A stretch of 64,000 nucleotides of DNA from Candidatus Rokuibacteriota bacterium (GTDB lineage Bacteria; Methylomirabilota; Methylomirabilia; Rokubacteriales; CSP1-6). The translations under genes were made by a program, and so were the position numbers. The stretch is from assembly GCA_023248995.1 (NCBI GenBank), contig JAHFDN010000007.1, positions 3,980 through 67,979 on the forward strand, written 5' to 3'. This document shows positions 24,725-60,307 of the stretch, one piece after another (the first letter of the stretch is position 1; each line of letters opens with the position of its first letter). Under the pieces are notes generated by a model, which did no database searches, had not been told where the DNA came from, and saw nothing but the letters and a program-made list of their open reading frames with translations.

Positions 24725-24801
24725 CCTCGGAGGGGGCCTCGACGGCCCCCTCCGATTCCTCCCCCTAGGGTTGCGCTGGCATAGCCAGCGCTCGAACGGC
24801 C
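24725..24801. repeat. GC-rich intergenic repeat element, copy A (about 77 bp, two hairpins)
   Basis: Starts 3 nt after the DUF4337 stop, between convergent genes. Aligns to copies B and C. Contains GGAGGGGGCC-TCGAC-GGCCCCCTCC and GCGCTGGC-ATA-GCCAGCGC. Confidence 0.75.
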
Positions 24802-24881
24802 AACTCTCCGGGACAAGCGGGAGGCGGCGGGCGACCACCGTGGAGCTGCTCGCCGCGGCAGGACCCGCTGGCGGCGCGCGA

Positions 24882-26282
24882 CTAGATGTGAATAGCTTGG
24901 CCGAGGGCCCCGAGCGTCGCCTCCAGCGCCGCTTCCGAGAGCGTCGGATGCGCGTGGATCGTGTGGATCAGCTCCTCGAGGGTTGCCTCCAGCGTCCTCC
25001 CCACCGCGAACTCGTGGATGAGCTCCGTGGCCTCGGGGCCCACGATGTGCACCCCCAGGATCTCCCCCGTCGCCTTGTCCGCCACCACCTTGAGGAACCC
25101 TTCGGCCTCCCCGAGGGCGACCGCTTTGCCGTTGGCCGAGAAGGGGAACCGCCCGACGGCCACCTCGCTGCCGCCGGCTTTCGCCTGCTCCTCCGTTTTG
25201 CCGATGGACGCCACCTGCGGGCGGCAGTAGGTGCAGCTCGGGACATTGGTGTAATCGAGGGAATCGGGCTTCCGCCCGGCGATCGCCTCGGCCGCGACGA
25301 CGCCCTCGGCCATCGCCTTGTGGGCGAGCAGCGGCGGACCCGCCATGTCGCCGATGGCGTAAACCCCAGCCACCGAGGTTTCCATGCGCGGCGAGACTTT
25401 GACGAACCCGCGCTCCAGGGCGACGCCGAGCGCCTCGAGGCCCACGTCTTTCACCTTGGCTGCGCGCCCCACGGCCATGAGCACCTGCTCCGCTTCGAGC
25501 CGCTCGGCCTTGCCGTCGGCCTCGATCTCAACGGTCACGGCCGCCTTGGCCGCTTTGACGGCCTGCACCTTCACGCCGGTCCGGATCCCGATCCCACGCC
25601 GGCTGAAGCAGCGCGCCACTTGCGAAGAGACCTCCTCGTCCTCCAGCGGGAGGACACGCGGCAGCGCCTCGAGCAGCGTGACCCGGACCCCGTATGCCGC
25701 ATAGACGTCGGCGAACTCCATGCCGACGGCGCCCGCCCCGACGATGATCAGCGACCCAGGCGCCCGCTCGAGGCGGACCGCTCCGTTGGAAGAAATGACG
25801 GACTGCTCGTCGATCGCGACGCCGGGCAGAGACTTGGGCTCCGACCCGGTGGCGAGGATCACGTGCCGCGCCTCCACCGTCTGACTCCCGCCGCCGGTCG
25901 CGACCTCCACCGCCGTGGGGCTCTTGAGCCGGCCCCGCCCCGCGAGGAGCGTGATCTTGTTCTTCTTGAAGAGGTACTCGACCCCCTTCGCCATCCGATC
26001 GGCAATCTTGCGGCTTCGCCGGATCGCCTCCGCATAATCCGCCTCGAAGCCGGACAGCTTGATCCCGAACTCGGCCGCCCGCTCGAAGAGGCCCACGACC
26101 TCGGCATTGCGGAGCAACGCCTTGGTGGGGATGCACCCCCAGTTGAGGCACACGCCCCCCGGGCGGTCGTCCTCGACCGCCGTCACGCGGAGCCCCAGCT
26201 GGGCGCAGCGGATGGCCGCGACGTAGCCGCCCGGCCCCGTCCCCACGACCAGGACGTCAACCTTCTCGGTCCCCAACGGCAT
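24882..26282 (-). CDS. lpdA: dihydrolipoyl dehydrogenase (E3)
   Basis: FAD motif ..VLVVGTGPGGYVAAIR.., redox disulfide ..GGVCLNWGCIPTKAL.., C-terminal ..HAHPTLSEA.. ATG start at MPLG; the track ORF begins at an upstream GTG. Confidence 0.9.
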   Translation of the reverse strand: MPLGTEKVDVLVVGTGPGGYVAAIRCAQLGLRVTAVEDDRPGGVCLNWGCIPTKALLRNAEVVGLFERAAEFGIKLSGFEADYAEAIRRSRKIADRMAKGVEYLFKKNKITLLAGRGRLKSPTAVEVATGGGSQTVEARHVILATGSEPKSLPGVAIDEQSVISSNGAVRLERAPGSLIIVGAGAVGMEFADVYAAYGVRVTLLEALPRVLPLEDEEVSSQVARCFSRRGIGIRTGVKVQAVKAAKAAVTVEIEADGKAERLEAEQVLMAVGRAAKVKDVGLEALGVALERGFVKVSPRMETSVAGVYAIGDMAGPPLLAHKAMAEGVVAAEAIAGRKPDSLDYTNVPSCTYCRPQVASIGKTEEQAKAGGSEVAVGRFPFSANGKAVALGEAEGFLKVVADKATGEILGVHIVGPEATELIHEFAVGRTLEATLEELIHTIHAHPTLSEAALEATLGALGQAIHI

Positions 26283-26292
26283 TTCTCCCTCC

Positions 26293-26344
26293 CCCCTCAC
26301 CTTTATCCTCTCCCCCGCAGGGGGGGAGAGGGCAGGGTGAGGGG
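26293..26344. other. nested GC hairpin between the E2 stop and lpdA start (intra-operon stem-loop)
   Basis: Inner stem CCTCTCCCCC-GCA-GGGGGGGAGAGG lies inside outer arms CCCCTCACC ... GGTGAGGGG. No downstream U-tract on the coding (minus) strand. Confidence 0.5.
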
Positions 26345-26348
26345 ATCT

Positions 26349-27683
26349 CTAGACCAGGAGACGGAGCGGCTCTTCCAGGAGCCGCCTCAGGTCCTGGAGG
26401 AAGCGCGCCCCCATCGCACCGTCCATCGCCCGGTGATCGCACGAGAGCGTGATCTGCATCCGCCGGCCCATCCCGATCCGCCCGTCCTCCACGACGGGCA
26501 CCACCTTCACCGCTCCGACGGCGAGGATCGCGCCCTCGGGCGGGTTGATGATCGCTGAGAATAGGTCCACGTCGAACATGCCGAGGTTGGAGATCGAGAA
26601 CGTGGCGCCCGAGAGCTCGGGAGCCCTGAGGCGCCGGTTGCGGGCGCGCTCCACCAGATCCCGCCCCTCCACGGCGATCTCGGCGAGCGACCTCGCCTCG
26701 CAGTTGCGGAGGACCGGCGTGATGAGCCCATCGTCCAGCGCCACCGCAAGTCCGATGTGCACCCGGTAGTGCACCCGGATCGTGTCGCCCTGGAACGAGG
26801 CGTTTACCTCCGGATGCTGGAGGAGCGCGAGCGCGCACGCCTTGACGATCATGTCGGTGACCGAGATCTTGGGCTGCCCATCGAGCGCGTTCAGCTCTTC
26901 CCGGAGCTCCCAGGCCCGGTCCATGGCGATCTCGCTCGTCAGGTAGAAGTGGGGGACGGGGCTCTTGGCCAGCGGCATCCGCTTGGCGATGACCGCCCGG
27001 ATCGAGGAAAGCGGCACGTCCTGGTACTCCACCCCGGGCACGGTCGGGACCTTTGCCGGCGCCACGACGGGCATTGGAGCTCCGCTCATCGCCCCCAGAA
27101 CGTCGCGGCGGACGATGCGCCCGCTCGGGCCGCTCCCATGGACGAGCCGGAGGTCAACGCCCGACTGGGCCGCGATCTTCTTCGCCAGCGGCGAGGCCTT
27201 CACGCGGCCACCCGGGACGCCGGCCGGCTCTCCTGCCGACGGCTCTGGGCCTCTGACCAGCGACCGGGGCGCGGGGACGGGGGTCGGGACCGGAGCGGCG
27301 GCACGCGCGGGAGCCGGCGGAGGCGCAGTCCCGGCAGGCTTCGGGGGCGCGGGAGGCGGCGGCGCGGCAGTCGGGGATGGCGACACGGCAGGAGCCGGGC
27401 TCGGCGCGGCGGCGCCGGCCAGGACGCCCGCGATGTCGTCGGCCGGCTCGGCGACGACGGCGATCAGCCCCCCTACGGGAGCCCGCGCGCCGGCCGGCAC
27501 CATGATCTTCCTGAGCACGCCCGTCCCGAAGGATTCGAGCTCGATGTCAGCCTTGTCCGTCTCGATCTCGGCAATGATCTCCCCGCCCTCGACCTTGTCC
27601 CCTTCCTCCTTCAGCCACTTGATGACCCTGCCGGTCTCCATGGCCTCCGAGAGCTTGGGCATCACCACTTTCGTGATCGCCAT
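26349..27683 (-). CDS. dihydrolipoamide acetyltransferase, E2 component of pyruvate dehydrogenase
   Basis: N-terminal lipoyl domain (..IAEIETDKADIELESFGTG..), Ala/Pro-rich linker, and catalytic domain ending ..LSCDHRAMDGAMGARFL.. Confidence 0.9.
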   Translation of the reverse strand: MAITKVVMPKLSEAMETGRVIKWLKEEGDKVEGGEIIAEIETDKADIELESFGTGVLRKIMVPAGARAPVGGLIAVVAEPADDIAGVLAGAAAPSPAPAVSPSPTAAPPPPAPPKPAGTAPPPAPARAAAPVPTPVPAPRSLVRGPEPSAGEPAGVPGGRVKASPLAKKIAAQSGVDLRLVHGSGPSGRIVRRDVLGAMSGAPMPVVAPAKVPTVPGVEYQDVPLSSIRAVIAKRMPLAKSPVPHFYLTSEIAMDRAWELREELNALDGQPKISVTDMIVKACALALLQHPEVNASFQGDTIRVHYRVHIGLAVALDDGLITPVLRNCEARSLAEIAVEGRDLVERARNRRLRAPELSGATFSISNLGMFDVDLFSAIINPPEGAILAVGAVKVVPVVEDGRIGMGRRMQITLSCDHRAMDGAMGARFLQDLRRLLEEPLRLLV

Positions 27684-27695
27684 GTCGAACCTCCG

Positions 27696-28676
27696 TCACG
27701 CGTAGCAGACCCGGCGGATGGCGGCGATGATCTTCTCCTTCGAGGGCGTCTTCGCTTGCTCCAGATTTTTCGCGTACGGCATGGGGGCGTTGGCGCCGGT
27801 GACCCGCTCCACCGGAGCGTCGAGGTCGTCGAAGGCGTTCTCGGTGATGAAAGCGACGATCTCCGATCCCATCCCGGCGAAACCGGCACCCGCTTCCACG
27901 ACCACCGCCCGGTGAGTCTTCCTGACGGAGCCGATCAACGTCTCGATGTCCATGGGCCGGAGCGTCCTGGGGTCAACGATCTCGCACGAGATCCCCTCCT
28001 GGGCCAGCGCCTCCGCCGTCTCCAGCGCCCGGTACATCATCCCCATGTAGGCGATCACCGTCACGTCCGTCCCCTCCCGGCGGATCTTCGCCCGGCCGAG
28101 CGGGATGGTGAAGTCCGCGTCGTCGGGGACCTCGCCCTTGATGCCGTAGAGCGTCTCGGACTCGATGAAGATGACCGGGTTCTCGTCGCGGATGGCGCTC
28201 TTCAAGAGCCCTTTCGCATCCTCGGGAGTGGAGGGGCGCACCACCTTGAGACCCGGCACGTGGTAGAAGTAGGACTCCATGGACTGGGAATGCTGAGCAG
28301 CCAGTTGATGGGCGGGTCCGCCCGGGCCGCGCACGACGATCGGGACGTTGAACTGCCCCCCCGACATGTAAGACATCTTGGCCGCGGAATTGACGATCTG
28401 ATCGAGCGCCAGGATGGCGAAGTTGAAGGTCATCATCTCCACCACCGGCCTGAGCCCCAGCATGGCGGCGCCGATCGCCACCCCCGTAAACCCGGACTCG
28501 CAGATCGGCGTGTCCATCACGCGCCGCTCGCCGAACTCCTTGAGGAGCCCCTGAGTCACCTTGTAGGCGCCGTCGTACACCCCGATCTCTTCGCCGAGGA
28601 GGAACACCCGCGGATCGCGCCGCATCTCTTCCCGCAGAGCCAGGTTCAGCGCCTCACGATACGTCATCACACTCAT
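27696..28676 (-). CDS. pdhB: pyruvate dehydrogenase E1 beta subunit
   Basis: Transketolase-like beta subunit pattern (..RVMDTPICESGFTGVAIGAAMLGLRPVVEMMTFNF..). Confidence 0.9.
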   Translation of the reverse strand: MSVMTYREALNLALREEMRRDPRVFLLGEEIGVYDGAYKVTQGLLKEFGERRVMDTPICESGFTGVAIGAAMLGLRPVVEMMTFNFAILALDQIVNSAAKMSYMSGGQFNVPIVVRGPGGPAHQLAAQHSQSMESYFYHVPGLKVVRPSTPEDAKGLLKSAIRDENPVIFIESETLYGIKGEVPDDADFTIPLGRAKIRREGTDVTVIAYMGMMYRALETAEALAQEGISCEIVDPRTLRPMDIETLIGSVRKTHRAVVVEAGAGFAGMGSEIVAFITENAFDDLDAPVERVTGANAPMPYAKNLEQAKTPSKEKIIAAIRRVCYA

Positions 28677-28690
28677 ACGCTACTCCTTCT

Positions 28691-28767
28691 CCTCGGAGGG
28701 GGGCTAGCGCCCCCCTTCCGAACCTCCCCCCGGGATGGCGAGGGCAAAGCCCTCGCTCGAAGCCGCC
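28691..28767. repeat. GC-rich intergenic repeat element, copy B (between pdhA stop and pdhB start)
   Basis: CCTCGGAGGGGGGCTAGCGCCCCCCTTCCGAACCTCCCCCCGGGATGGCGAGGGCAAAGCCCTCGCTCGAAGCCGCC. Confidence 0.75.
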
Positions 28768-28782
28768 TGATCGAACGTTGTC

Positions 28783-28807
28783 GGTCGTGCGACGGTTATC
28801 GACACGG
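28783..28807. repeat. 25-nt conserved motif GGTCGTGCGACGGTTATCGACACGG abutting the pdhA stop codon (copy 2 of 2)
   Basis: Ends 3 nt before the pdhA stop triplet. Immediately follows repeat element copy B. Confidence 0.6.
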
Positions 28808-28810
28808 CGC

Positions 28811-29809
28811 CTACTCCTTGAAGATGTCCGTGGTCAGCCACTCGAGCGGCGGCTCGGGGGAGGCGTCGGCGAAGGCCACGGCTTCGTCCACGAGGTCGTT
28901 GATGTCTTTCTCGATGGTTTTCACCTCGCCCTCCGTCAGGACTCCGTCCTTGAGACAGCGCCCCCGGAACAGCGCGATGGGGTCGCGCTGCTTCTCGCGC
29001 TCCACCTCTTCCTTCGTCCGGTAGATCGCCGCGGAGGGGTCGCGCATAGAGTGCCCCCGGAAACGGTACGTGCGCGCCTCGATCAGGCTGGGCCCCTGCC
29101 CCCGCCGGCCGCGCTCGACCGCCCGTCCGACGACCTCCCGCACCGCGAGGACGTCCATGCCGTCCACCGCCTCGCCGGCGATACCGTAGGTCTCCGCGTA
29201 GCGCCAGATCTCGGTTTGGGCCAGCGCCCGGTGGATGGCGGTCCCCATGGCATACCGGTTGTTCTCGCACAGGTAGATCACGGGGAGCTTCCAGAGGGCC
29301 GCGAGATTCAGCGATTCGTGGAATTCCCCCTGGGGCACCGCGCCGTCCCCGAAATAGCAGACGACCACCTGGTCGCCACCCTGGTACTTGACGGCGAAGG
29401 CGGCCCCCGCCGCCAGCGGCAGATGCGCGCCCACGATGGCGTGTCCTCCCAGGAAGTTCTTGGACTTGTCGAAGAGATGCATGGAGCCGCCCCTGCCTTT
29501 ACTCAGGCCGTCGCGGCGGCCAAAGAGCTCGGCCATGATGCGGCGCGGGTCCGACCCTTTCGCCAGGCAGTGGCCGTGCTCCCGGTAGGAGGAGATCGCG
29601 TAGTCGTCGGGCCTGAGCGCAGCCGTGGCCCCCACCGCAACCGCCTCCTCGCCGATGTAGAGGTGGAGGAAGCCGCCGATCTTGCCCAGGGCGTACATCT
29701 CCGCCGCCTTTTCCTCGAAGCGACGGATCAGGACCATCTGGGAGAGAAGCCGACGCGCCAGCTCGGCGTCCACCTTTGGCGCCACCGTTATTGCCTTCGC
29801 TTGAGCCAT
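28811..29809 (-). CDS. pdhA: pyruvate dehydrogenase E1 alpha subunit
   Basis: ThDP-binding ..GDGAVPQGEFHESLNLAALWKLPVIYLCENNRYAMGT.. Confidence 0.9.
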   Translation of the reverse strand: MAQAKAITVAPKVDAELARRLLSQMVLIRRFEEKAAEMYALGKIGGFLHLYIGEEAVAVGATAALRPDDYAISSYREHGHCLAKGSDPRRIMAELFGRRDGLSKGRGGSMHLFDKSKNFLGGHAIVGAHLPLAAGAAFAVKYQGGDQVVVCYFGDGAVPQGEFHESLNLAALWKLPVIYLCENNRYAMGTAIHRALAQTEIWRYAETYGIAGEAVDGMDVLAVREVVGRAVERGRRGQGPSLIEARTYRFRGHSMRDPSAAIYRTKEEVEREKQRDPIALFRGRCLKDGVLTEGEVKTIEKDINDLVDEAVAFADASPEPPLEWLTTDIFKE

Positions 29810-29824
29810 ACGTTCCCTCCGGGT

Positions 29825-30130
29825 TCACCAGCGCATCAGGCTCAGGTCGTCCACGGACAGCCTCCGGCGGAGCCTGAAGATGGCGACGATGATCGCCAGC
29901 CCGACGGCCACCTCCGCCGCGGCTACCGTCATCACGAAGAAGACTAGCACCTGCGCCTCGGCTGTGGCGAGCCCCGAGCCGAACGCCACCAGGGCCAGGT
30001 TGGCGGCGTTCAGCATCAACTCGATCGACATGAAGATCACGAGCGGGTTCCGGCGCACCAGGACTCCCACCACCCCGATCGCGAACAGGACCGCCGACAG
30101 CCCCGTATAGTACGCCTCGGGCACCATCAT
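29825..30130 (-). CDS. nuoK: NADH-quinone oxidoreductase subunit K (copy 1)
   Basis: 101-aa 3-TM NuoK/ND4L pattern (..[25 protein letters not shown]..). The track ORF has an upstream extension. Confidence 0.85.
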
Positions 30131-30645
30131 TCGCTCTTCCGTTTCGCGAGCGTAAGGACCCCCACCAGGGCGGCGAGGAGGAGGATCGACGTGACCTCGA
30201 AGGCAAAGAGGTAATCGCCCAGGAGGAGCCGGCCGACGGACTCGATCCCCCCCGCACGGACTCCGACCTGAGGCAGCGACGCCGCGCCTCCGACCCCACC
30301 CCCGCTCCGGCTGCCCCAGAGGACGAGGGCGATCTCGAGAAGAAGGAAAAGGCCCAGCGGCACGGCCATCAGGCGCTGCGAGCGAAGCGGATCCGGCCCC
30401 GTCTCCTCCTTGCCCGGGATCAGCACCATGATGGCGAAGACAAACAGGACCATGATCGCGCCGGCATAGATGATGACCTGTGCCAGGGCCAGGAACTCGG
30501 CGCCCAGGAGCAGGTAGAGCACCGCCACGCAACCCAGGTTCACCACCAGGAACAGGGCGCCGTGGATCGGGTTCCGGCGCAGCACCAGCGCCAGCGCCGA
30601 GGCCACCGCGACGATGGCCACGATGAGGAAGACCCCCAGCGCCAT
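30127..30645 (-). CDS. nuoJ: NADH-quinone oxidoreductase subunit J (copy 1)
   Basis: 172-aa NuoJ/ND6-like protein (..[28 protein letters not shown]..). Confidence 0.8.
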
Positions 30646-30647
30646 GG

Positions 30648-31202
30648 CTAGGGTCGCCGGTCCGGCGGAATCGAAATCGGGGACCGCGGCGTCCCGTCCG
30701 GCCCCGCCGGCTCCAAGGCCAGGAGCGTCTCTTTCGTGTAGATCATGCCCAGCCGACTGTAGGACGAGAATTCGAGAATGCCCGTGTCCATACGAATGGC
30801 ATCCTCCGGGCACGCCTCCACGCAGTAGCCGCAGAAGACGCACTTGCCGAGATCGATGTCGAAGCGCTCCGGATACTTTTCGATGTCCTGATTCGGATGC
30901 TCGGCCGCCACGATGTAGATGCAGTGCGCCGGACAGACCGTCTCGCACATCATGCACGCGACACAGCGCGGGGACCCATCCTCCCGACGGACCAATCGGT
31001 GGAGGCTCCGGAGCCGCGGGGAGTAGGGCCGCCGCTCCTCCGGGTACTGGAAGGTCACCGCCCCAGGCACCGTCTTGCGCCCGAAGACGTGGTGCGCGGT
31101 GTGGCGGCCCAGGTTCACGAAGAAGTGGGCTGCGGTGACCCCCAGGCCGATCAGCACTTCGGCGAGATAGAAGCGCTGCCGAAACTTCACGGACCCCTCC
31201 AC
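30648..31202 (-). CDS. nuoI: NADH-quinone oxidoreductase subunit I (copy 1)
   Basis: Two 4Fe-4S ferredoxin motifs ([12 protein letters not shown]; [12 protein letters not shown]). Confidence 0.9.
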
Positions 31203-32299
31203 GCGACCAACACAAGGCCCGTGGCGGCGACGTTCAGGATCGAGAGAGGGAAGAGCCCGAGCCAGCCGAGCCGCATGGCCTGATCATACCGGAAACGGGG
31301 GAGCGTCCAGCGGATCAGCATGAGGAACCAGCACACGACAGCGACCTTCAGGCAGAAGGCCAGCACCTGGAGCAGGGCGACCAGGGGCTGCGCCAGCGCG
31401 ACCGTCGCGCCCCAGGGAAAGCGGAAGCCGTCGCCGGCCAGGTAGGGCACCTGCCAGCCGCCCAGGAACAGCGCGGTCGTCAAGCCGGCGATCACCACGG
31501 TCTCCACGAAGTCCGCCATCATGAACATCCCGAACTTCATCCCGCTGTACTCCACGAAGTAGCCGATGATCTCGGATTCCCCCTCGGGGAAATCGAAGGG
31601 GATGCGCTTGGTGGCGGCCATGCCCGCCGCGAGGAAGAGGATAAAGGCGGGCAGCTGGGTGAAGATCCCCCACTTGGGGATCCAGTCCCCGAACCACTGG
31701 GGCAGCAGCGGCGCCCCCTGGCCGCGGATGATCTCCATCATGTCCAGCGAGCCGTAGACCATGGCGACGCCCATGATGGAGGCGCCGATGGCGACCTCGG
31801 CCGAGATCATCAGAGCGGCGGCGCGCTGGCCCCCCAGCAGGGCGTAGTTGTTGGCCGAGGCCCAGCCAGCCATCATCACCCCGAAGACGCCGAGAGACAG
31901 CATGGCGAACACGTAGAGGATCCCCGCGTTCAACGTGACCGCCTGGAGCGGGATCTCCCGGCCGCCGGCCCGGAGCACGTCGCCGAAGGGGATCGCGGCA
32001 AACGCCACCAGAGCAGAGACCACCGAGACGAAGGGCGCCAGCGTGAAGAGCGTCCGGTCCGCCCGCGCCGGGAGGAAGTCCTCCTTCGTGAGCATCTTGA
32101 TGGCGTCCGCCAGCGGGTGAAAGAGACCGAGGAGCCGGAGGCCGAAGATGGAGGCCCGGTTGGCCCCGATCCGGTCCTGCATGACCGCCGACTGCTTGCG
32201 CTCCACCCACGTCAGCAACCCTCCCATGGTGAGGACGAACAGCATGACGAAGGCGACCCGCCCGAAGGCGATCCCCAGGCCGGCCATCGTCGGCGTCAT
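31187..32299 (-). CDS. nuoH: NADH-quinone oxidoreductase subunit H (copy 1)
   Basis: NuoH/ND1 signature (..QDRIGANRASIFGLLQ..; ..EGESEIIGYFVEYSGMKFGMFMMAD..). ATG overlaps the nuoG stop. Confidence 0.9.
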   Translation of the reverse strand: MTPTMAGLGIAFGRVAFVMLFVLTMGGLLTWVERKQSAVMQDRIGANRASIFGLRLLGLFHPLADAIKMLTKEDFLPARADRTLFTLAPFVSVVSALVAFAAIPFGDVLRAGGREIPLQAVTLNAGILYVFAMLSLGVFGVMMAGWASANNYALLGGQRAAALMISAEVAIGASIMGVAMVYGSLDMMEIIRGQGAPLLPQWFGDWIPKWGIFTQLPAFILFLAAGMAATKRIPFDFPEGESEIIGYFVEYSGMKFGMFMMADFVETVVIAGLTTALFLGGWQVPYLAGDGFRFPWGATVALAQPLVALLQVLAFCLKVAVVCWFLMLIRWTLPRFRYDQAMRLGWLGLFPLSILNVAATGLVLVAWRGP

Positions 32300-33900: not shown

Positions 33901-33903
33901 CGC

Positions 33904-39346: not shown

Positions 39347-39431
<85 letters not shown>

Positions 39432-47199: not shown

Positions 47200-48457
47200 A
47201 GCCAGAGCAGCGGTCCTGCCACTGGGCGTGCCCGATCCCGCAGGCGGCGCACCGGTGCGGCCATTCGAAACTCCGTGTCAGCGTCAGGGCCCGTCGGTAC
47301 TCCTGGAAGGCCTCGGCTGACTGGCCGCGGTGCTCGAAGATGGCGCCCAAATAGGCATGCAGCGGGGCGAAATCCGGCGCTCGAACCTCGACCTTCTGAA
47401 ACTGTTCCGCGGCCTCGTCGAGCATTTCGAGCTCGAAATAGACCCTCCCCAGCTCAAAAGCCAGCGCCGGGTCGTGCGGCGCGCGGGCGGCGGCGGCCGC
47501 GTGCAGGCTGATCATCCGGCTGGGGCGCCCCTCGACGCGATACGTCTGCTCCAGTCTCCGAAGGAGGACGAGCGCCGGGTTCGCCTCTGCGGCCCGCTCC
47601 CAGGCCCGAATCGCTTCGCGCTGATCGCCGACCTTCACATAGGCGTCCCCGATCCCGACCTGAGCTGGCAGAAAGCCACGGTCCGCCTTCAGCGACTCCT
47701 TGAAGCGGCTCAGGGCTTCCTCGGCCCTCCCCTCGGCCAGGAGCCCCTTGCCAATCTCATACTGAATCCCCGCGAGCCATTCGAGCTGCTGGGGGCGCTC
47801 CGCTTCGGGTACGACCTCGACGAGCCGCTCCTGGACCGACAGCGCCTCCGCCCACCGCCCCCGCTTGACGGTGAGGTCCCGGACTGCGCGGAGGGTGGCC
47901 GGGTGAGTCCGATCCCGCTGGAGAATCCGATGATAGGTCGCCAGTGCTTCGTCAACCCGCCCGGCGGAGTGATAGTCGAGGGCCACGGCCAGGAGCGTGT
48001 CGGGGCGCTCGCCAGCCCGCATGGCCTCCAGATGATGCTCGAGGGCGGCCTCGTGATCTCCCCGGGCGCGCGCCAGCTCGCCCAGCCGGGCGTGGGCGTC
48101 GCCAAAGCCGGGGTCCCGGGCGAGGAGCTCCCCGTACGCGTTGGCCGCGTCTTCGCTCCTGCCGGCCAGCTGCGCACCCAGGCCCCGATAGTAGATCTCC
48201 TGCAGGCTCTCATCACGGCGGGCGCGGCGCGCCAGCGCGTGATCACGAAAGGACCGACCCAGATCCCGGAGCACAGTCAGGGCGAGGGCGAGGCACGCGC
48301 CGGCGACAAAGGCGCCCACGACCAGCGCCATCAGAGGAAGCTCGTAGACCCAGTCGCCTCCCAGCGCGAGTCGGACGTGCGTGGCGTTGAGGGCGGTCAG
48401 GTAGGCAACGAGGGCGGCGAACAGGAGGGCCAGCAGGAGACCGAGGCGGACAGACAC
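47171..48457 (-). CDS. LapB/YciM-like TPR protein with C-terminal rubredoxin-type zinc finger
   Basis: N-terminal TM helix, multiple TPRs, C-terminal ..CAACG..CSGCGRWNT.. as in the LPS assembly regulator LapB. Confidence 0.65.
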   Translation of the reverse strand: MSVRLGLLLALLFAALVAYLTALNATHVRLALGGDWVYELPLMALVVGAFVAGACLALALTVLRDLGRSFRDHALARRARRDESLQEIYYRGLGAQLAGRSEDAANAYGELLARDPGFGDAHARLGELARARGDHEAALEHHLEAMRAGERPDTLLAVALDYHSAGRVDEALATYHRILQRDRTHPATLRAVRDLTVKRGRWAEALSVQERLVEVVPEAERPQQLEWLAGIQYEIGKGLLAEGRAEEALSRFKESLKADRGFLPAQVGIGDAYVKVGDQREAIRAWERAAEANPALVLLRRLEQTYRVEGRPSRMISLHAAAAARAPHDPALAFELGRVYFELEMLDEAAEQFQKVEVRAPDFAPLHAYLGAIFEHRGQSAEAFQEYRRALTLTRSFEWPHRCAACGIGHAQWQDRCSGCGRWNTSQP

Positions 48458-53656: not shown

Positions 53657-53660
53657 GCTT

Positions 53661-53972: not shown

Positions 53973-54016
53973 GGATACGAAACCCTCGGAGAGAAATGAA
54001 CTGCGTTAGACGTTCA

Positions 54017-54046
54017 TTTCACCACGGATGAGCGAAAAAAGTCAAG
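54017..54046 (-). promoter_or_regulatory. candidate rplU-rpmA-obg promoter (TTGACT-N18-TGAAAT), overlapped by a 9-bp inverted repeat
   Basis: A consensus -35 in a GC-rich background. The inverted repeat GAAATGAAC-N10-GTTCATTTC (53994-54021) overlaps the -10. Confidence 0.4.
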
Positions 54047-54099
54047 GCAGAGGCGCGATTAGCTGTAGGAGCCCTCGGTGAGTCGCTTCCCCGCGAAAC

Positions 54100-54753: not shown

Positions 54754-55367
54754 CGCGGCCCCCTCGTGTAGAGCAACAGGTGCGCCTTGAGTTCACCGAC
54801 GCACGCTTCCATGATTTGAATGTCCTTGGTGACCTTCGTCAGGAGGATGGCGCCCTCGAGCCCCGCGACGAGGAAATACGCGAGGACCGCCGGATCACAC
54901 TCCGGTCCGAGGCTCTCCTGGGCCTGAGCCTCAGCGAGCGCGTCGGTCAACCGCGCCCGCCAGCGGGTGAAAATCTCGGCCAGGCGCTGGCGAAACCCTT
55001 CGTGCACGTCCGACAACTCGGAGGCCAGGTTGCCCATGGGGCACCCGCCCACGCAGTTCCGCTGCCGCTGCGCCTCGAGGACGCGGTCGAAAAAGCACCG
55101 GACCCGGTCCAGCGGAGCGACGGTGCCATCGGAAAAGCAGGGCTCGAGGGTCCGCTCCACGAACCCCAGGATGATCCGGTCGAGCATCGCGTAGCCGAGC
55201 TCTTCCTTGCTCTTGAAGTAGTAGTAGAAGTTCCCCTTGCCGACCCCGCTCGCCCGCAGCACGTCATCCAGAGAGGTCGAGTGATACCCCTTGAGCGTCA
55301 TGAGGCGACTGGCCGCATGCAGGATGTGCTCCCGGGTCGCGTTGGGGGTCTTCGTGGCCGAAGTCAT
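54750..55367 (-). CDS. TetR/AcrR-family transcriptional regulator
   Basis: N-terminal HTH ..TREHILHAASRLMTLKGYHSTSLDDVLRASGVGKGNFYYYF.. Stop overlaps the sigma factor start. Confidence 0.85.
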   Translation of the reverse strand: MTSATKTPNATREHILHAASRLMTLKGYHSTSLDDVLRASGVGKGNFYYYFKSKEELGYAMLDRIILGFVERTLEPCFSDGTVAPLDRVRCFFDRVLEAQRQRNCVGGCPMGNLASELSDVHEGFRQRLAEIFTRWRARLTDALAEAQAQESLGPECDPAVLAYFLVAGLEGAILLTKVTKDIQIMEACVGELKAHLLLYTRGPR

Positions 55368-55373
55368 CTGTCT

Positions 55374-55391
55374 GTACCAACTAGTCGGTAC
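55374..55391. promoter_or_regulatory. 18-bp near-perfect palindrome GTACCAACTAGTCGGTAC 7 bp upstream of the tetR ATG; candidate TetR operator
   Basis: The palindrome is seen directly. Its position overlapping the probable promoter/5' end of the TetR gene is typical of autoregulated TetR operators. Confidence 0.4.
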
Positions 55392-55452
55392 ATAACTTAG
55401 CCATTGGGATGCGACTTGTCAATCGAATGGTGCTCTGAGGCCCTAAGTGGGC

Positions 55453-56862
55453 CTAAAACAAGGCGTTGGCAACTCGGAGCGTCAACTCGACAAGGGGCTT
55501 GGGATAGACCCCGACGCCAACAACGCCCAGGGTGCAGATCAGAATGGCCAGGGCGAGCGGCGGGGAAACAGGAATCGGGCCAGACCGCCGGGGCGCGTCG
55601 ATGTACATCGGCCGGGCAAGCATCAGATAGTAAAAAAGAGCCACCACCGTCAAGATCGCCCCGAGCAGGACGAGCCCGTAGAGCCCGGCCTGGGCGGCCG
55701 CCCAGAACACGTAGAGCTTGGCCCAGAATCCCGCCACGAAGGGAATCCCCCCGAGCGAGAGGAGCGACAGCAGCATGGCCAGAGCCAAGAGCGGCGCGCG
55801 CTCGGCCAAACCCCTGAGGGCGTCCAGATGCACGGACCCCTCAGCCTGGGCCACGGCCTCCACGATCAAGAACGCGCCCATGTTCCCGAAGACGTAGGCG
55901 ACCAGATAGAACAGGACCATGGCGGTCCCCGAGGCCGAGACGGCGGCGAGCCCCACCAGCATGTAGCCGATGTGGGCGATCCCGGAGTAGGCGAGCAGCC
56001 GTTTGCTGTTGCGCTGGGGCAGCGCCATCAGGTTCCCCGCTGTCATCGTGATCGCGGCGAGCCCGGCCACGATCGGGATCCACAGCGCCACCCGGTCTCC
56101 CACGCCCTCCAGATAGACGCGGAAGATCGCGACGAACCCCGCGGCCTTCGGGGCCACGGAGAGCCAAGCGACGAACGGCGTGCTGGCGGCCTCGTACGTG
56201 TCCGGCACCCACATGTGGAACGGGAACGCGGCGATCTTGAACCCGAACCCGGCCAGGACGAGGAACATTCCAACGAGGAGGAGTGGTCCCGGGGCTCCAA
56301 GGGCCCGGGCGACACCGGCCAGGGCGGTCGTCCCCGCCGCGCCGTACACGAAGGAGAGCCCGTAGGCCAGGATGGCGGACGACACGGTACCGACGAGGAA
56401 GAACTTCAGCGCGGCCTCCACGGCGACGCTCTCGCGCTTGAGGAAGCCCGACAGGACGTAGAGGGGGATGGACATGAGCTCGAAGGCCACGAAGAGCAGG
56501 ATCAGCTCCCGCGCGCTCACTAGGACGAGCATGCCGAGCAGCGAGGCCAAGAGGAGGAGGTAGTACTCGGGCGCCCGGCGCCTGAACGCCGGGTCGGTGA
56601 GCGACAGGGACCCCAGGATCCCGATGAAGGTGGCCACGAGGAGGAGTTGCTTGGCGAAGAGCGCGAGACCATCCAGCACGAAGGCGTCGCCGGGAGCGGC
56701 CGGAGCGGGCTCGAGGAGAAACGATCCGACCGCCAGGGCCAGGACGCCGATGGCAGAGATCATCCCGGCGATCCGCCGAGCGTCATCTCGGGCGACGACG
56801 CCGACGACGAAGACTCCCAGCATCAGCGTGCTCAACCCGAGCTCCAGCCCGAGAGCACTCAT
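55453..56862 (-). CDS. nuoN: NADH-quinone oxidoreductase subunit N
   Basis: 14-TM antiporter-like subunit with the NuoN pattern. ATG at MSALGLEL overlaps the nuoM stop. Confidence 0.85.
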   Translation of the reverse strand: MSALGLELGLSTLMLGVFVVGVVARDDARRIAGMISAIGVLALAVGSFLLEPAPAAPGDAFVLDGLALFAKQLLLVATFIGILGSLSLTDPAFRRRAPEYYLLLLASLLGMLVLVSARELILLFVAFELMSIPLYVLSGFLKRESVAVEAALKFFLVGTVSSAILAYGLSFVYGAAGTTALAGVARALGAPGPLLLVGMFLVLAGFGFKIAAFPFHMWVPDTYEAASTPFVAWLSVAPKAAGFVAIFRVYLEGVGDRVALWIPIVAGLAAITMTAGNLMALPQRNSKRLLAYSGIAHIGYMLVGLAAVSASGTAMVLFYLVAYVFGNMGAFLIVEAVAQAEGSVHLDALRGLAERAPLLALAMLLSLLSLGGIPFVAGFWAKLYVFWAAAQAGLYGLVLLGAILTVVALFYYLMLARPMYIDAPRRSGPIPVSPPLALAILICTLGVVGVGVYPKPLVELTLRVANALF

Positions 56863-58406
56863 GGGAGGGCTCCGAGCCGCGCCAGCAGCGGAACCGTGGC
56901 CGTATCGATCGGGCCAAGGGCGATCCCCGGCGCCACGCCGAAGAGCACGATCACGAAGATGAGAAGCACCAGCGCCACCCACTCGGGCCCCCGGGCGTCT
57001 GGGAGATCGTGGAACTCGCCCCCGGCCGGCACCGCGCCCCAGAAGATCTGCTTCACCACGCGGAGGACGTAGATGGCGGTGAGGAAGGTCCCCGCGACCG
57101 CCGGGAAGAGCCACCAGGAGTGGGCCGAGCGCCAGGCGCCCAGGAAGGTCAGAAACTCGGCCACGAAGCCGGCCGTCGCCGGCAGTCCCAGCGAGGACAG
57201 CCCGCCGATCGTGAAGGCCGTGGCGATCCCCGGCATCATGCGGCCGAAGCCGCCCATCCGGAAGATCTCCCGCGAGTGCGCTTTCTCGTAGACGAGCCCG
57301 ACGAGGGCGAAAAAGAGCCCCGTCATGATCCCGTGGGCGAACATCTGGAAGACCGAGCCGTTCAGCCCCGCCTCGGTCAAGGTGGCCGCCCCGAGGAGAA
57401 CGATCCCCATGTGGGAGACGGAAGAATAGGCGATGACGTACTTCAGGTCGGTCTGAGCCATGGCCGAGAGCGCCCCATAGACGATGTTGATGGTGGCGAT
57501 CGTCCCCACGAGCGGCACCCAGTCGTGCGTGCCTTCGGGAAGAAGCCCCATCCCCAGCCGCACCACGCCGTAGGCGCCCAGCTTCATCAGCACGCCGGCG
57601 TGGAGCATGGAGACGGCCGTGGGAGCCGAGGCGTGGCCGTCAGGGGACCAGGTGTGGAGCGGCCAGATGCCCGCCAGGATTCCAAACCCGACGTAGAACA
57701 GCAGGAACACCCACCGCTGGAGCACCGGGTCGAAGGCGACACCCTCCATCTCGAGAAAGCTGAACGAGGCCCCACCGGCGGCCATATAGAGCGCCAGGAT
57801 CCCCACGAGGATGAAGGCCGACCCGAGGAGCAGGTAGAGGGTCAGCTTCATGGCGGCGTACTCCTTGGAGCCCACGCCAGTCTCGCGCATCGCCCAGCCG
57901 AAGAGACCCCGCGGACGGATCTGGGCCGACGACCCCCAGATACCGATCAGGAGGTACATGGGGAGGACGGCGAGTTCGTAGAACAGGAAGAAGACGAAAA
58001 GGTCCAAGGAGACGAAGACGCCGAAGACCCCCGTGACGAGGACCAGGAGCAGCGCGTAAAACTCCTGGCTCCGTGTCTCGACCGTCCAGGAGGCGAAGAC
58101 GCCCGCGAAGATGATGATGGCCGTGAGCAGGACCAGCACGAGGCCGATCCCGTCGGCCCCCACCTCGTAGGAAATGCCGAGGGGCGGCACCAGCGCGACC
58201 TTCTGGTAGAACTGAAAGCGCGCGGCGTCCACGTCCCCGTCGAAGCGGGCGTAGGCTACGAGCGACAGGAGCAGCGAGATGCCCGTCGCCACGGCCGCGA
58301 TCAGGCGCACCGCCCGCGGGCGGTGGCGGGCGGTGAACATGATGAGCAGCGCCCCCACGAAGGGCATCCAGGTGATCAGCGAGAGGATCCAGACGTTCAG
58401 GTCCAT
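56859..58406 (-). CDS. nuoM: NADH-quinone oxidoreductase subunit M
   Basis: ND4-like (..WLPDAM.. equivalent ..HTWSPDGHASAPTAVSMLHAGVLMKLG..). ATG at MDLNVWIL abuts the nuoL stop. Confidence 0.9.
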   Translation of the reverse strand: MDLNVWILSLITWMPFVGALLIMFTARHRPRAVRLIAAVATGISLLLSLVAYARFDGDVDAARFQFYQKVALVPPLGISYEVGADGIGLVLVLLTAIIIFAGVFASWTVETRSQEFYALLLVLVTGVFGVFVSLDLFVFFLFYELAVLPMYLLIGIWGSSAQIRPRGLFGWAMRETGVGSKEYAAMKLTLYLLLGSAFILVGILALYMAAGGASFSFLEMEGVAFDPVLQRWVFLLFYVGFGILAGIWPLHTWSPDGHASAPTAVSMLHAGVLMKLGAYGVVRLGMGLLPEGTHDWVPLVGTIATINIVYGALSAMAQTDLKYVIAYSSVSHMGIVLLGAATLTEAGLNGSVFQMFAHGIMTGLFFALVGLVYEKAHSREIFRMGGFGRMMPGIATAFTIGGLSSLGLPATAGFVAEFLTFLGAWRSAHSWWLFPAVAGTFLTAIYVLRVVKQIFWGAVPAGGEFHDLPDARGPEWVALVLLIFVIVLFGVAPGIALGPIDTATVPLLARLGALP

Positions 58407-60226
58407 CAGGGCCAGTAGCTCCACACGATCACGAGGAGGAGCCCGAAGGCGACGCCATAGAGGTAGTCCTGAGCGCGGCCGGTCTGGATCCGCCGGAGGC
58501 GGTCGCCTACCCTCAGGGTCCACGCGCTGGCCCAATTCACGAGGCCATCGACCAGGTAACGATCCACCCACCCCACCAAGCGCGAGAGCGCGAGGAAGCC
58601 TCCCCGGTAGACGGCACCGTAGAAGTCGTCGAGCCAGAACTTGCGCTGGGCGGCGGTATAGAGCGGGGCGAAGATCCGCGCCAGCGTCTCGGCGCTGACG
58701 GCCTGCTTCTGGTACGTGACCCAGGCACAGACGATCCCCGCCACGGCCAGCGCGGACGAGACCCACGGAATCCACCCCGGGCCGTGGCCTTCCTGTCCGC
58801 CCCCACGGAGCGCGAAGTAGCCGCCGACGCCCACGGTCAGCCCCGCTAGAGTCCAGAGCGGCAGGCTCATGGACACCGGCGGATCGTGGGGATGTCCCTC
58901 CGCGCGACCAGCACCGAAGAAGACCAGGAAGACGACGCGAAACATGTAGAAGGCCGTGAGGAAGACCGTGAGCGCGAGCATCAGGAAGGGAACCGTGAGC
59001 CCCCCTTCCCAGACGCCGGCCAGGACGGCGTCCTTGGAGAAGAAGCCGGCCAAGGGCCAGATCCCCGCCAGGGCCAGGGTTCCCACGAGAAAAACGATCG
59101 CGGTCTGGGGCATGGCGCCGCCGAGGCGCCCCATCCTCCAGACGTCGTTGGTGCCAACGGCATGGATCACCGCGCCCGCGCCGAGGAACAGGAGCGCCTT
59201 GAAGAGGCCGTGGGTCAGGAGGTGGAAGAACCCCGCCCCGAGGGCGCCCGCGCCCAGCGCCGCCATCATGTAGCCCAGCTGCGAGACCGTCGAGTACGCG
59301 AGAACGCGCTTGATGTCAGCCTGGACCAGCCCGAGCACCGCCGCCAGCAGCGCGGTGAACGCGCCCACCCAGCCGATCAGCGCCAGGACGTCGGGGGTCA
59401 GGAGGAAGAGCGGATAGGCGCGGGTGACCAGGTACACGCCCGCGGCCACCATCGTCGCCGCGTGGATGAGGGCGGAGACGGGCGTCGGTCCCTCCATCGC
59501 GTCGGGAAGCCAGACGTGGAGGGGAAACTGGGCGCTCTTGCCCACGGCCCCGAGGTAGATGAGGAACATGACGAGCCCGAGCCCGTCGGGCGCCAGAGTC
59601 CCGTCCCCCGCCATCTTGAAGAGCTCGGAGAAGGTGAAGGTCCCGGCGCGCCCCCACAGGAGTACGATGCCGATGATAAAGCCGAGATCGCCGACCTTCG
59701 TCGTCCAGAACGCCTTCACCGCGGCGCGCGCCGCCTCGGGCTTGTCGTACCAGAAGCCGATCAGGAGGTACGAGCAGAGCCCCACCAGCTCCCAGAAGAT
59801 GAACATCTGGAGGAAGTTCCCCGCAAGGACCAGGCCGATCATCGAGACGGCGAAGAGCGAGTGGTAGGCGTAGTAGCGCCCGAGCGCCGGCCCCGTCTCG
59901 TGCTCCAGGTACCCGAGCGAGTAGAGCTGGACCAGGAACGAAACCAGGGCCACCAGGACGAGCATCACCGCCGCCACCGGGTCCACCAGGATCCCGACGG
60001 TGGCCATGGGTCCGCCCTCGGCGGGAAGCCAGCTCCACGCGAGCTCCACCCCCTGCCCGGAGCGCCAGAGGACCAGCGCCGCGACGAGAGCCCCTCCGAT
60101 CGCGGCGATGCCGAGCGCCCCGGCGGCCTTCCCGGCCCGACGCAACGGCGCCACCACCGCGAGGAGAACGAAGGCGCAAAGAGGGAGCCCGAGGGCCGCC
60201 AGAGCCAGCGTGCCGGCGTCGTTCAT
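58406..60226 (-). CDS. nuoL: NADH-quinone oxidoreductase subunit L
   Basis: ND5-like, about 606 aa (..HVWLPDAMEGPTPVSALIHAATMVAAGVYL..). ATG at MNDAGTL. Confidence 0.9.
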   Translation of the reverse strand: MNDAGTLALAALGLPLCAFVLLAVVAPLRRAGKAAGALGIAAIGGALVAALVLWRSGQGVELAWSWLPAEGGPMATVGILVDPVAAVMLVLVALVSFLVQLYSLGYLEHETGPALGRYYAYHSLFAVSMIGLVLAGNFLQMFIFWELVGLCSYLLIGFWYDKPEAARAAVKAFWTTKVGDLGFIIGIVLLWGRAGTFTFSELFKMAGDGTLAPDGLGLVMFLIYLGAVGKSAQFPLHVWLPDAMEGPTPVSALIHAATMVAAGVYLVTRAYPLFLLTPDVLALIGWVGAFTALLAAVLGLVQADIKRVLAYSTVSQLGYMMAALGAGALGAGFFHLLTHGLFKALLFLGAGAVIHAVGTNDVWRMGRLGGAMPQTAIVFLVGTLALAGIWPLAGFFSKDAVLAGVWEGGLTVPFLMLALTVFLTAFYMFRVVFLVFFGAGRAEGHPHDPPVSMSLPLWTLAGLTVGVGGYFALRGGGQEGHGPGWIPWVSSALAVAGIVCAWVTYQKQAVSAETLARIFAPLYTAAQRKFWLDDFYGAVYRGGFLALSRLVGWVDRYLVDGLVNWASAWTLRVGDRLRRIQTGRAQDYLYGVAFGLLLVIVWSYWP

Positions 60227-60230
60227 AACC

Positions 60231-60307
60231 CCTCGGAGGGGGGCTCCGCCCCCCTTCCGACGCCTCCCCCACGGGATTGCGCGGGCAAAGCCCGCGCTCG
60301 AACGGCC
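60231..60307. repeat. GC-rich intergenic repeat element, copy C (between nuoK2 stop and nuoL start)
   Basis: CCTCGGAGGGGGGGCTCCGCCCCCCTTCCGACGCCTCCCCCACGGGATTGCGCGGGCAAAGCCCGCGCTCGAACGGCC. Confidence 0.75.

Follow-up and report, generated by a model that had tools for sequence, protein, structure and literature searches.

Two-hairpin interspersed repeats at gene junctions of uncultured Rokubacteria: a constrained and probably mobile family

Introduction

In a 64,000-nucleotide stretch of DNA from a Candidatus Rokuibacteriota bacterium (GenBank assembly GCA_023248995.1, contig JAHFDN010000007.1, positions 3,980 to 67,979; hereafter the window), three GC-rich intergenic stretches of about 77 bp resemble each other closely. 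What is this element, and how did it come to lie between genes of unrelated function? A preliminary description of the window had proposed a dispersed, structured intergenic repeat resembling repetitive extragenic palindromic (REP) sequences and bacterial interspersed mosaic elements (BIMEs). Our analysis makes it likely that the three stretches belong to one family of small non-coding interspersed repeats, which is specific or nearly specific to Rokubacteria (phylum Methylomirabilota), is or was mobile, occupies gene junctions and has a core under constraint. The best reading of the family is a mosaic repeat of the REP/BIME-like kind or of the kind of mycobacterial interspersed repetitive units (MIRUs); it is neither a strict REP, nor a classical miniature inverted-repeat transposable element (MITE), nor a derivative of the IS200/IS605 insertion sequences.

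Rokubacteria are widespread uncultured bacteria of soil and groundwater with large, GC-rich and tightly packed genomes. A repeat family in such genomes is a possible marker of insertion polymorphism among close relatives and a likely source of assembly breaks.

Three copies in the window

The three stretches lie on the plus strand in one orientation and align end to end with a mean column identity of 78%, at the positions given in the preliminary description. Each copy contains two hairpins, named H1 and H2. The parts are:

24725-24801, plus strand: core of copy 1, between convergent genes; 84.7 bits
24727-24755, plus strand: hairpin H1 of copy 1, TCGGAGGGGGCC / TCGAC / GGCCCCCTCCGA
24773-24791, plus strand: hairpin H2 of copy 1, GCGCTGGC / ATA / GCCAGCGC
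28691-28761 (aligned stretch to 28767), plus strand, antisense to the pdhA/pdhB mRNA: core of copy 2, in the pdhA-pdhB spacer; 84 bits
28693-28721, plus strand: hairpin H1 of copy 2, TCGGAGGGGGGC / TAGC / GCCCCCCTTCCGA, with one T bulged
28738-28756, plus strand: hairpin H2 of copy 2, GCGAGGGC / AAA / GCCCTCGC, a rare stem variant
60231-60307, plus strand, antisense to the nuo mRNA: core of copy 3, in the spacer of a nuoK-like and a nuoL-like gene; 92.1 bits
60233-60260, plus strand: hairpin H1 of copy 3, TCGGAGGGGGGC / TCC / GCCCCCCTTCCGA
60263-60270, plus strand: unpaired run of copy 3, CCTCCCCC; on the mRNA it reads GGGGGAGG and is Shine-Dalgarno-like, with H1 between the run and the start codon
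60279-60297, plus strand: hairpin H2 of copy 3, GCGCGGGC / AAA / GCCCGCGC, the commonest variant of the family

The bit scores come from a covariance model (R1) built from 104 relatives. It gives the three copies 84-92 bits and the next best site of the window only 16, so the window holds exactly three copies. The window has exactly three occurrences of the left 12-mer CCTCGGAGGGGG. The 3' motif GGCAAAGCCNNCGCTCGAA has four matches where 0.45 are expected; three are the copies and one is a weak site with three mismatches at 47367-47385. This count was reached by none of 100 shuffled sequences. Chance similarity of GC-rich, low-complexity DNA would be favoured by a genome of about 70% G+C with common G/C runs, and the search of other genomes described below did return 16 chance hits among the 122 matches listed, L061 being a seventeenth that was dropped. 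Against chance stand the gap between the model scores, the shuffles and more than 100 full-length copies with the same boundaries, which refute it and leave it practically no probability.

Pfam assignments agree with the gene context that had been proposed, namely two copies within operons and the third between convergent genes. Copy 1 starts 2 nt past the TAA of a DUF4337 gene (24135-24722, plus strand), and a convergent gene of the dihydrolipoamide dehydrogenase type (24882-26282, minus strand) has its stop 85 nt to the right of it. Copy 2 separates the genes for E1 alpha and E1 beta of a 2-oxoacid dehydrogenase (pdhA, pdhB), and the mRNA order across it is H2, GGGGGGAGG, H1, GAGG. Copy 3 lies between the NuoK-like and NuoL-like genes, with its left end 4 nt from the nuoL ATG (60226-60224) and the nuoK stop (60334-60336) 31 nt to its right. 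The element had also been said to end 4-8 nt from the downstream start codon, which does not fit both operons: the distance is 4 nt at nuoL but 14 nt at pdhB, and the pdhB spacer has an AAGGAG of its own.

A repeat family of Rokubacteria

One genome per species was scanned with the pattern CCTCGGAGGGGG-N(42-62)-CGCTCGAA, which returned at least 116 stretches. With the three copies of the window included there are at least 122 pattern matches, and the counts given below for the family are counts among the matches listed. A first motif filter passed 106 of them, and one of these (L061, from Solirubrobacterales; the stretches are referred to by such L numbers) was discarded on inspection. The 16 matches from other phyla lack the internal motifs and are the chance hits mentioned above. 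The copies are spread over about 30 assemblies that carry the label Candidatus Rokubacteria, Rokuibacteriota or Methylomirabilota. At least 11-13 strict-pattern copies were found in each of three assemblies, and 3 in the 64-kb window. The covariance model finds about 20 extra, more diverged copies within the same loci. Within the set of loci, the window is closest to CSP1-6 and to two other bins of Rokubacteria (83-88% nucleotide identity); proteins of the window were also found on groundwater metagenome contigs. The suggestion of a dispersed, GC-rich, structured intergenic repeat is thus borne out by a family of at least 106 copies, nearly all of them in assemblies of Rokubacteria or Methylomirabilota.

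No Rfam family was found for the element at gathering thresholds or at E-values up to 10, and the best hits by E-value on copy 3 are far under threshold (for example 24 versus 77 bits). Viral contigs gave a single hit, judged to be a chance match. The literature searched held no description of repeats in Rokubacteria, and a two-hairpin repeat family of these uncultured bacteria is apparently undescribed so far.

Genuine copies were also seen in bins assigned to other phyla, L062 and L115 (Candidatus Limnocylindria) and L049 (Candidatus Acidoferrum). These may be mis-binned Rokubacteria contigs or the result of horizontal transfer. At L020:1750-1903, a scaffold gap (a run of Ns) lies inside a partial copy beside a full copy, and 28 nt of flank are duplicated; the repeat probably breaks or misjoins short-read assemblies.

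Anatomy and covariation of the core

The conserved core is about 72-78 bp long and is bounded by CCTCGG and TCGAAC. Its order is (CC)TCGG, H1, the free run CCTCCCCC, a short variable spacer, H2 and TCGAAC, followed by a right-hand extension. H1 is a 12-bp G/C stem with the window form TCGGAGGGGGGC...GCCCCCCTTCCGA, and H2 is an 8-bp stem of the form GCGnnGGC-AAA-GCCnnCGC whose central pairs covary. Copy 1 belongs to a subfamily with a perfect H1 stem, in which C-G replaces G-C as the apical pair. Directly before CCTCGG, and again a few nucleotides past TCGAAC, the information content falls to about zero. In diverged copies the first two bases vary (CC, AC, GC, TC, CT), so the invariant part starts with TCGG. 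The strict search pattern fixes 20 of about 72 positions, and these columns are uninformative about conservation.

In the core, near-invariant blocks (H1, CCTCCCCC, TTGCG, the outer pairs of H2 and TCGAA) are interspersed with effectively random positions, namely both bases that follow CCGA, the spacer of 4-10 nt, the first base of the loop and the central pairs of H2. The alternation is seen across more than 100 copies, even inside single genomes. Folding of both strands of the three window copies gave two strong stem-loops, with -47 to -52 kcal/mol and z-scores of -1.8 to -4.7.

The 3' hairpins of the three copies had been reported to differ by compensatory pairs only, and they do: GCGCTGGC/GCCAGCGC, GCGAGGGC/GCCCTCGC and GCGCGGGC/GCCCGCGC are all fully Watson-Crick. 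The covariation extends to the related genomes, where 98.7% of cells are paired versus 94.3% in shuffles and 48-58% when the partners are slid by 1-3 columns; both sides of a pair changed in 65 cells versus 22 in shuffles. Compensatory changes occur in 4 of 18 pairs. Three of the pairs of H2 show the following composition: pair 76:87 is G-C in 54, C-G in 43 and U-A in 5 copies; pair 75:88 is C-G in 97, G-C in 5 and A-U in 1; pair 77:86 is G-C in 98 and A-U in 2, with A-C in 4. H1 is conserved in sequence and covaries at its apical pair only (G-C 86, C-G 9).

Two very stable GC-rich stem-loops, placed directly after stop codons in about 40% of the copies, could also be a pair of intrinsic terminators or attenuators that share their sequence by chance. 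In the three window copies, neither H1 nor H2 is followed by a T-run on either strand, and no terminator-like site was called. Many copies separate linked cistrons that need co-transcription, such as nuoK/nuoL and pdhA/pdhB, and the sequence of the single-stranded segments is conserved, although a terminator has no need of this. We regard this explanation as highly improbable.

The core has no conserved reading frame; the variable spacer length rules out a single one. It has no terminal inverted repeats either: its ends, CCTCGGAG... and ...GCTCGAAC, are not complementary, and the 30 nt to the right of the core show no enrichment of the inverted left end. An 8-bp terminal inverted repeat suggested by CTCCGAGG right of the copy in L069 was found in a small subfamily only, with no family-wide enrichment.

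In one copy represented by two loci (L026:1954-2025 and L036:5329-5400), the left flanks are about 97% and the right flanks about 82% identical, and the extensions differ by about 40 nt, which reflects either a real length polymorphism or an assembly error. In L036 the upstream open reading frame (ORF) passes through the entire core without a stop.

Position at gene junctions

Gene boundaries adjoin the left end of the element much more frequently than its right end. The left end lies 0-7 nt from the start codon of an opposite-strand gene in 26 of 49 copies and 0-6 nt from a same-strand stop codon in 26 of 42. Both flanking genes are antisense to the element in 43 cases (-,-), as for window copies 2 and 3, and both are in its sense in 18-23 cases (+,+); 11 copies lie between convergent genes and only 2-3 between divergent ones. 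Of about 100 copies, about 61-66 have co-directional neighbours, with one orientation favoured 2:1, and divergent spacers of the promoter type are almost never occupied. The neighbouring genes are functionally unrelated and include pdh and nuo genes, ABC transporters, response regulators and the DUF4337 gene.

A+T makes up 50-75% of the five flanking bases nearest to the left end, in a genome of about 70% G+C, and this is due to the stop and start codons themselves. The left flank carries less than 0.4 bit per position and is only A/T-rich, without a conserved target motif. ATGA and GTGA stops upstream of the copies are only marginally enriched (17 of 39 versus a background of 30%, p = 0.056).

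Filled and empty sites and target duplications

Five comparisons of filled and empty alleles were made at orthologous junctions that share both flanks. The sites include:

pdhA/pdhB junction: filled in the window, L005 (CSP1-6) and L033; empty in L052 (TGA-G-ATG)
L005:3996 site: filled in L005; empty in the window at about 30645-30650 (TAG-CC-ATG) and in L052
L026/L036 site: filled in L026 and L036; empty in the window at about 52372 and in L008
L008:485 site: filled in L008; empty in the window, with a 4-nt overlap at about 56859-56862

The empty alleles indicate that the element arrives where the original spacer measures -4 to +2 nt. Direct repeats of the target, 8-54 nt long, flank the core together with its variable extension, and many contain the stop/start overlap (ATGA, GTGA or CTAG). 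For copy 2 these parts are:

28680-28688, plus strand: left target duplication, CTACTCCTT; mRNA sense AAGGAGTAG
28762-28810, plus strand: right-hand extension, 49 nt, poorly conserved; holds a second module, GTGCGACGGTTATCGACACGG, at 28787-28807
28811-28819, plus strand: right target duplication, CTACTCCTT; on the mRNA AAGGAGTAG, the last codons of pdhA and its TAG stop

The left duplicate of copy 2 provides the Shine-Dalgarno sequence AAGGAG of pdhB, whose ATG is at 28676-28674. The pdh duplication measures 9 nt in the window and 21 nt in L005. Across the family, 12 of 116 copies have an exact 8-mer beside the left end that is found again 0-70 nt beyond the core on the right (1.0 expected), and 13 copies have such a repeated 10-mer with at most one mismatch (1.15 expected). 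No duplication of 3-5 nt was found at the immediate flanks of the core.

Individual loci show what is duplicated. In L077, the 27-nt duplicate starts at an internal ATG; the mini-ORF that results is 8 codons long and terminates in the original ATGA overlap with the next gene. L017 and L048 have duplications of 50 and 54 nt, in which the upstream gene's final 16-17 codons occur twice. L008 has its GTGA overlap in duplicate, and the convergent pairs L059 and L069 their shared CTAG. Between the two copies of long duplications, 14 of 16 differences fall at third codon positions by hand count. Translation of both copies was considered as an explanation; under a fairer null, with one copy constrained, the excess is modest, and nothing is built on it here.

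On our reading the element lands where genes abut or overlap, at ATGA, GTGA, TAATG or CTAG junctions, and its insertion appears to duplicate 8 to more than 50 nt of the target. The upstream gene thereby keeps its last codons and stop, and the downstream gene keeps its start and, where present, its Shine-Dalgarno sequence. Such loci are a natural experiment in which an insertion is tolerated in overlapping, translationally coupled gene pairs by way of a duplicated gene end. Should the route of mobility be new, bacterial mobile elements would gain a further class.

Long target duplications of variable length are made by IS1634 of Mycoplasma mycoides, an autonomous DDE element with inverted repeats. 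Eukaryotic short interspersed nuclear elements (SINEs) combine variable duplications with an A/T-rich junction and with ends of which one is exact and the other variable, and they need the reverse transcriptase of a long interspersed nuclear element (LINE). The Rokubacteria element resembles both in its duplications and also resembles SINEs in the asymmetry of its ends and in the A/T-rich junction. Unlike IS1634, it lacks inverted repeats, and unlike for SINEs, no counterpart of the LINE reverse transcriptase is known in bacteria.

One possibility is that the element spreads through an RNA or copy-choice intermediate with no DNA transposase, either by target-primed reverse transcription or by template switching at a hairpin. 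Processed 3' fragments of mRNA, trimmed back to the foot of H1 in the reverse-transcription route, or strands stalled at a hairpin, would be copied into nicked junctions, which would make the element a SINE-like retroposon or template-switch element in bacteria. Besides the duplications of 8-54 nt, such a route would explain why one end (CCTCGG) is exact and the other ragged, 12-58 nt beyond TCGAA. It would also account for the 0-6-nt A/T-rich linker between the duplication and the exact end, for the lack of inverted termini and of a conserved target motif, and for the partial head duplications and tandem junctions of L078, L044, L104 and L085. The exact end is moreover the 3' end of the mRNA-sense strand in the commoner operon orientation. 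On the other hand, no reverse transcriptase or other candidate gene was seen in the sampled loci, the extensions are not simple nested truncations and some are independent modules, and the support comes from patterns. We know of no SINE-like retroposon in bacteria. Both routes taken together appear distinctly unlikely to us. If they applied, the long duplication would let the element colonise overlapping coupled genes without killing them.

Two other candidates were rejected. An autonomous parent was sought, and no H1/H2 pair split by a long insert and no recurrent transposase-like protein near the copies was found. Integron attC sites do not fit the mixed orientation of the copies or their neighbours, which are core metabolic operons.

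Possible roles at the RNA level

Since the element is usually part of a transcription unit, two very stable stem-loops are present in the transcript. Placed between cistrons or at 3' ends, these could be structural modules that stop exonucleases or mark off segments of the mRNA. From the analogy with REP and ERIC (enterobacterial repetitive intergenic consensus) elements we infer that the likeliest effect would be protection or segmentation of polycistronic mRNA. The mRNA-stabilising or ribosome-binding role suggested in the preliminary description would thus be plausible. If the hairpins matter at the RNA level, the family would shape the expression of core operons such as those for complex I and pyruvate dehydrogenase across the phylum.

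The commoner orientation gives an mRNA with the order H2, GGGGGAGG, two bases, H1, GG, 0-7 bases and start codon. GGAGG and GAGG peak 5-8 nt before starts in these genomes. The terminal GAGG falls outside this range, at 0-4 nt, in 18 of the 26 abutting starts, and for 17 of the 26 a folded H1 would place GGGGGAGG at 5-9 nt from the start codon. Folding of H1 could thus bring an exposed GGGGGAGG to within about 4-11 nt of the start codon, and this run may serve as a ribosome-binding site. Genes 38 and 25 of phage T4 have such a split Shine-Dalgarno arrangement, with a hairpin between the Shine-Dalgarno sequence and the start. Here too, a stable hairpin between the Shine-Dalgarno-like run and the start would give a functional distance. 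In T4 this is a device of single genes, whereas here it would belong to a dispersed repeat, whose motif is kept equally well where Shine-Dalgarno action is impossible.

Constraint on the core and weight of the evidence

Between orthologous copies, identity is 82-99% in the core, 84-97% in the coding flanks and only 51-67% in the extension, which is effectively unalignable. The core evolves no faster than protein-coding DNA, while the adjacent sequence cannot be aligned. The rare H2 variant of the pdh copy, GCGAGGGC/GCCCTCGC, recurs complete in the orthologous copy L005:1896-1968; L033:7573-7669 keeps the 5' arm GCGAGGGC, and a nested insertion disrupts its 3' arm. A rare variant kept at an orthologous locus indicates that conservation is inherited locus by locus and not imposed by homogenisation. 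Saturated positions beside invariant blocks within single genomes indicate that most copies are old and constrained rather than recent.

The same features would be expected of a conserved cis-regulatory RNA, for example a leader, attenuator, thermosensor or protein-binding motif, that was placed by selection and is not mobile. Near-invariant blocks stand beside saturated positions, the core is conserved like coding DNA between orthologues, H2 covaries, and the element often lies directly before start codons with a Shine-Dalgarno-like run. Such an RNA would not be expected in both orientations and also between convergent genes, in the numbers given above, or next to genes of unrelated function. 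Neither would it leave orthologous sites filled in one genome and empty in another, or target duplications at its flanks, and Rfam has no family for it. We consider this alternative very unlikely.

The reading that we prefer, a constrained repeat that is or was mobile, with hairpins that may act in the mRNA, has several points against it. The strict search pattern inflates the highest core identities, and in the less biased pairs (window copy 2 with L005, window copy 1 with L033) the core is 82-84% identical versus about 85-88% for the flanks. The junction distances come from genes called by a coding-potential caller trained on the window, with start codons not taken from a curated annotation. 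A recognisable flanking duplication is present in only about 10-20% of the copies, so that duplication is established for a subset. The duplications are far longer and more variable than those of any standard transposase, and template switching or recombination-mediated capture may be another origin. No transposase-like family recurs among the 839 predicted proteins in about 0.9 Mb around the copies. As to the RNA role, the covariation fits structure in RNA and in single-stranded DNA alike. The CCTCC/GGAGG run is conserved equally in both orientations (39 of 41 versus 40 of 45, p = 0.44), being no better kept in the one capable of ribosome binding. Conservation driven by Shine-Dalgarno function was rejected on this ground: ribosome binding cannot be the main reason why the run is kept. 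That single-stranded blocks are conserved suggests that a protein or the mobilising machinery recognises them, either in DNA or in RNA.

Extensions and mosaic spacers

The distance from TCGAA to the right duplicate is 12-18 or 45-49 nt, occasionally about 30 nt, with a range up to 58 nt, which explains why the upstream stop codon clusters at those distances. The extensions are poorly conserved and are not nested truncations of a single sequence; an internal deletion distinguishes the extension of window copy 2 from that of L081. A third hairpin in the extensions of 45-62 nt was considered and rejected, as they have no consensus fold and are less structured than shuffles (mean z +0.6).

Some extensions are independent repeat modules. 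The second module, [AG]TGCGACG[GC]TTATCG.C.CGG, is found at 17471-17491 and 28787-28807 of the window and at L031:5560-5580, L036:7172-7192, L089:5763-5783 and L099:1259-1279. It occurs with or without the two-hairpin core, and in at least 4 of the 6 occurrences it lies 1-5 nt from the stop of an opposite-strand gene. It lies in the 49-nt stretch that separates the pdh copy from the pdhA stop, and its solo occurrence in the window is:

17471-17491, plus strand: solo second module, GTGCGACGGTTATCGCCACGG, 1 nt from the stop of the minus-strand gene 17493-18494

Core-bearing and solo modules together indicate that the spacers are mosaics of several short modules, and it is in this sense that the term BIME-like fits best.

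Further modules were observed. A third one of about 35 nt (...GCCTTGCATCTGGACCTTTTTGATCAGCC...) lies directly right of the core or alone and forms the extension in L010; its sites are L010:3712-3745, L058:161-194, L072:4647-4680, L089:2645-2676, L079:171-205, L099:5172-5206, L044:5118-5152, L115:3829-3864 and L087:6398-6427. In L010, L030, L072, L079, L087, L089 and L099 (two assemblies, DATEAO and JACOUJ), a conserved AAGGCCCATCTGCGGCGAAGGCTTT precedes the core, 25 nt left of it, at a distance of 38 nt from unrelated upstream genes. L072 also has this sequence inverted right of 4908-4973, which creates a 17-bp inverted repeat around the core. A small hairpin, CCCACGCC-NNNN-GGCGTGGG, often preceded by GGGTA, was seen at L033:7588-7604, L032:3436-3452 and L008:2025-2041, and a similar one at 17450-17470 of the window. 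It is nested in some cores or replaces part of them, as if it were a further tiny insertion module.

Partial duplications of the head or tail and head-to-tail junctions occur at L078:488-512, L044:1156-1180, L104:3084-3151, L085:4466-4530 and L028:6786-6808; for example, the first 15 nt are repeated ahead of a full copy, or a second H2 follows a full copy. Tail-to-tail inverted pairs of cores lie between convergent genes at L105:6056-6137 (plus) with 6200-6282 (minus) and at L073:2010-2093 (plus) with 2124-2208 (minus). In both pairs, the left end of each copy is set against the stop codon of its own gene.

Comparison with known repeat families

REP sequences and BIMEs of Enterobacteria and Pseudomonas, including the REPINs (paired inverted REPs) mobilised by REP-associated tyrosine transposases (RAYTs), are like the Rokubacteria element in being abundant, extragenic, transcribed GC-rich hairpins with compensatory stem changes and module mosaics. 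They too are rare in divergent spacers of the promoter type, and REPs are thought to be barriers to mRNA decay. The Rokubacteria element differs in having two hairpins with conserved single-stranded blocks, mostly single copies and long duplications, and it belongs to another phylum.

A strict REP/REPIN element, cut and copied as single-stranded DNA by a cognate RAYT, would account for the high copy number, for the extragenic position of GC-rich hairpins with compensatory changes inside transcription units, for the two tail-to-tail inverted pairs between convergent genes and for the association with other repeat modules. A core of 77 bp with two different hairpins is not the single palindrome of 20-40 bp that would be expected. 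The stem foot has no GTAG-like tetranucleotide, the 2 nt before TCGG being variable; inverted pairs are exceptional (2 among 123 copies); and flanking target duplications are foreign to single-strand transposition of the HUH type. No recurring RAYT-like gene was seen in the sampled loci (839 ORFs, about 0.9 Mb around the copies), which is a weak point among these. A strict REP is unlikely. From the preliminary description, REP/BIME-like stands in the mosaic sense, with the second module beside the pdh copy as the example in the window, and fails for the GTAG-type foot, regular inverted pairs and a RAYT in the sampled DNA.

The mosaic repeat that we favour can also be set beside MIRUs, the mycobacterial repeats that Supply and colleagues reportedly described in 1997. 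Both are 40-100-bp intercistronic repeats in operons of a GC-rich genome with an orientation preference. Short ORFs can bridge stop and start in MIRUs, and individual copies here show something similar. Examples are the 8-codon mini-ORF of L077 and upstream ORFs that run through the core to a TAATG, as in L016; individual copies with such ORFs through the core are L016, L065, L066 and L090. MIRUs form variable tandem arrays and are not defined by strong hairpins, whereas the copies of the Rokubacteria element are single, with few tandem or partial duplicates (L086, L093, L104, L028), and its mini-ORFs derive from the duplicated target and not from the repeat.

With MITEs (the Correia elements of Neisseria, ERIC, RUP and Nezha), the family shares small size, a non-autonomous nature and insertion polymorphism, as well as co-transcription with neighbours, whose expression such elements can alter. 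It differs from MITEs by the lack of terminal inverted repeats, by duplications of 8-54 nt that are not of fixed length, and by an exact left and a ragged right end. Palindrome-associated transposable elements (PATEs) of the IS200/IS605 type likewise have two different subterminal hairpins, no inverted termini and strand-specific behaviour; in the Rokubacteria element H1 lies near the left end and H2 6 nt from TCGAAC. PATEs insert 3' of a fixed target of 4-5 nt without duplication, in contrast to the duplications and the lack of a target motif found here, and H1 begins 2 nt from the end and not about 10-20 nt from it.

Other features of the window

The window holds one tRNA gene, at 39350-39431 on the minus strand, which is its sole Rfam match at gathering thresholds. 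It also carries two paralogous sets of complex-I-type membrane subunit genes (NuoK/J/I/H-like), at 29825-32299 and 60334-62612, 30 kb apart. One of the sets adjoins the pdh operon, and the two are 70-76% identical at the nucleotide level in places (29980-30100 with 60489-60609, and 30424-30514 with 60900-60990).

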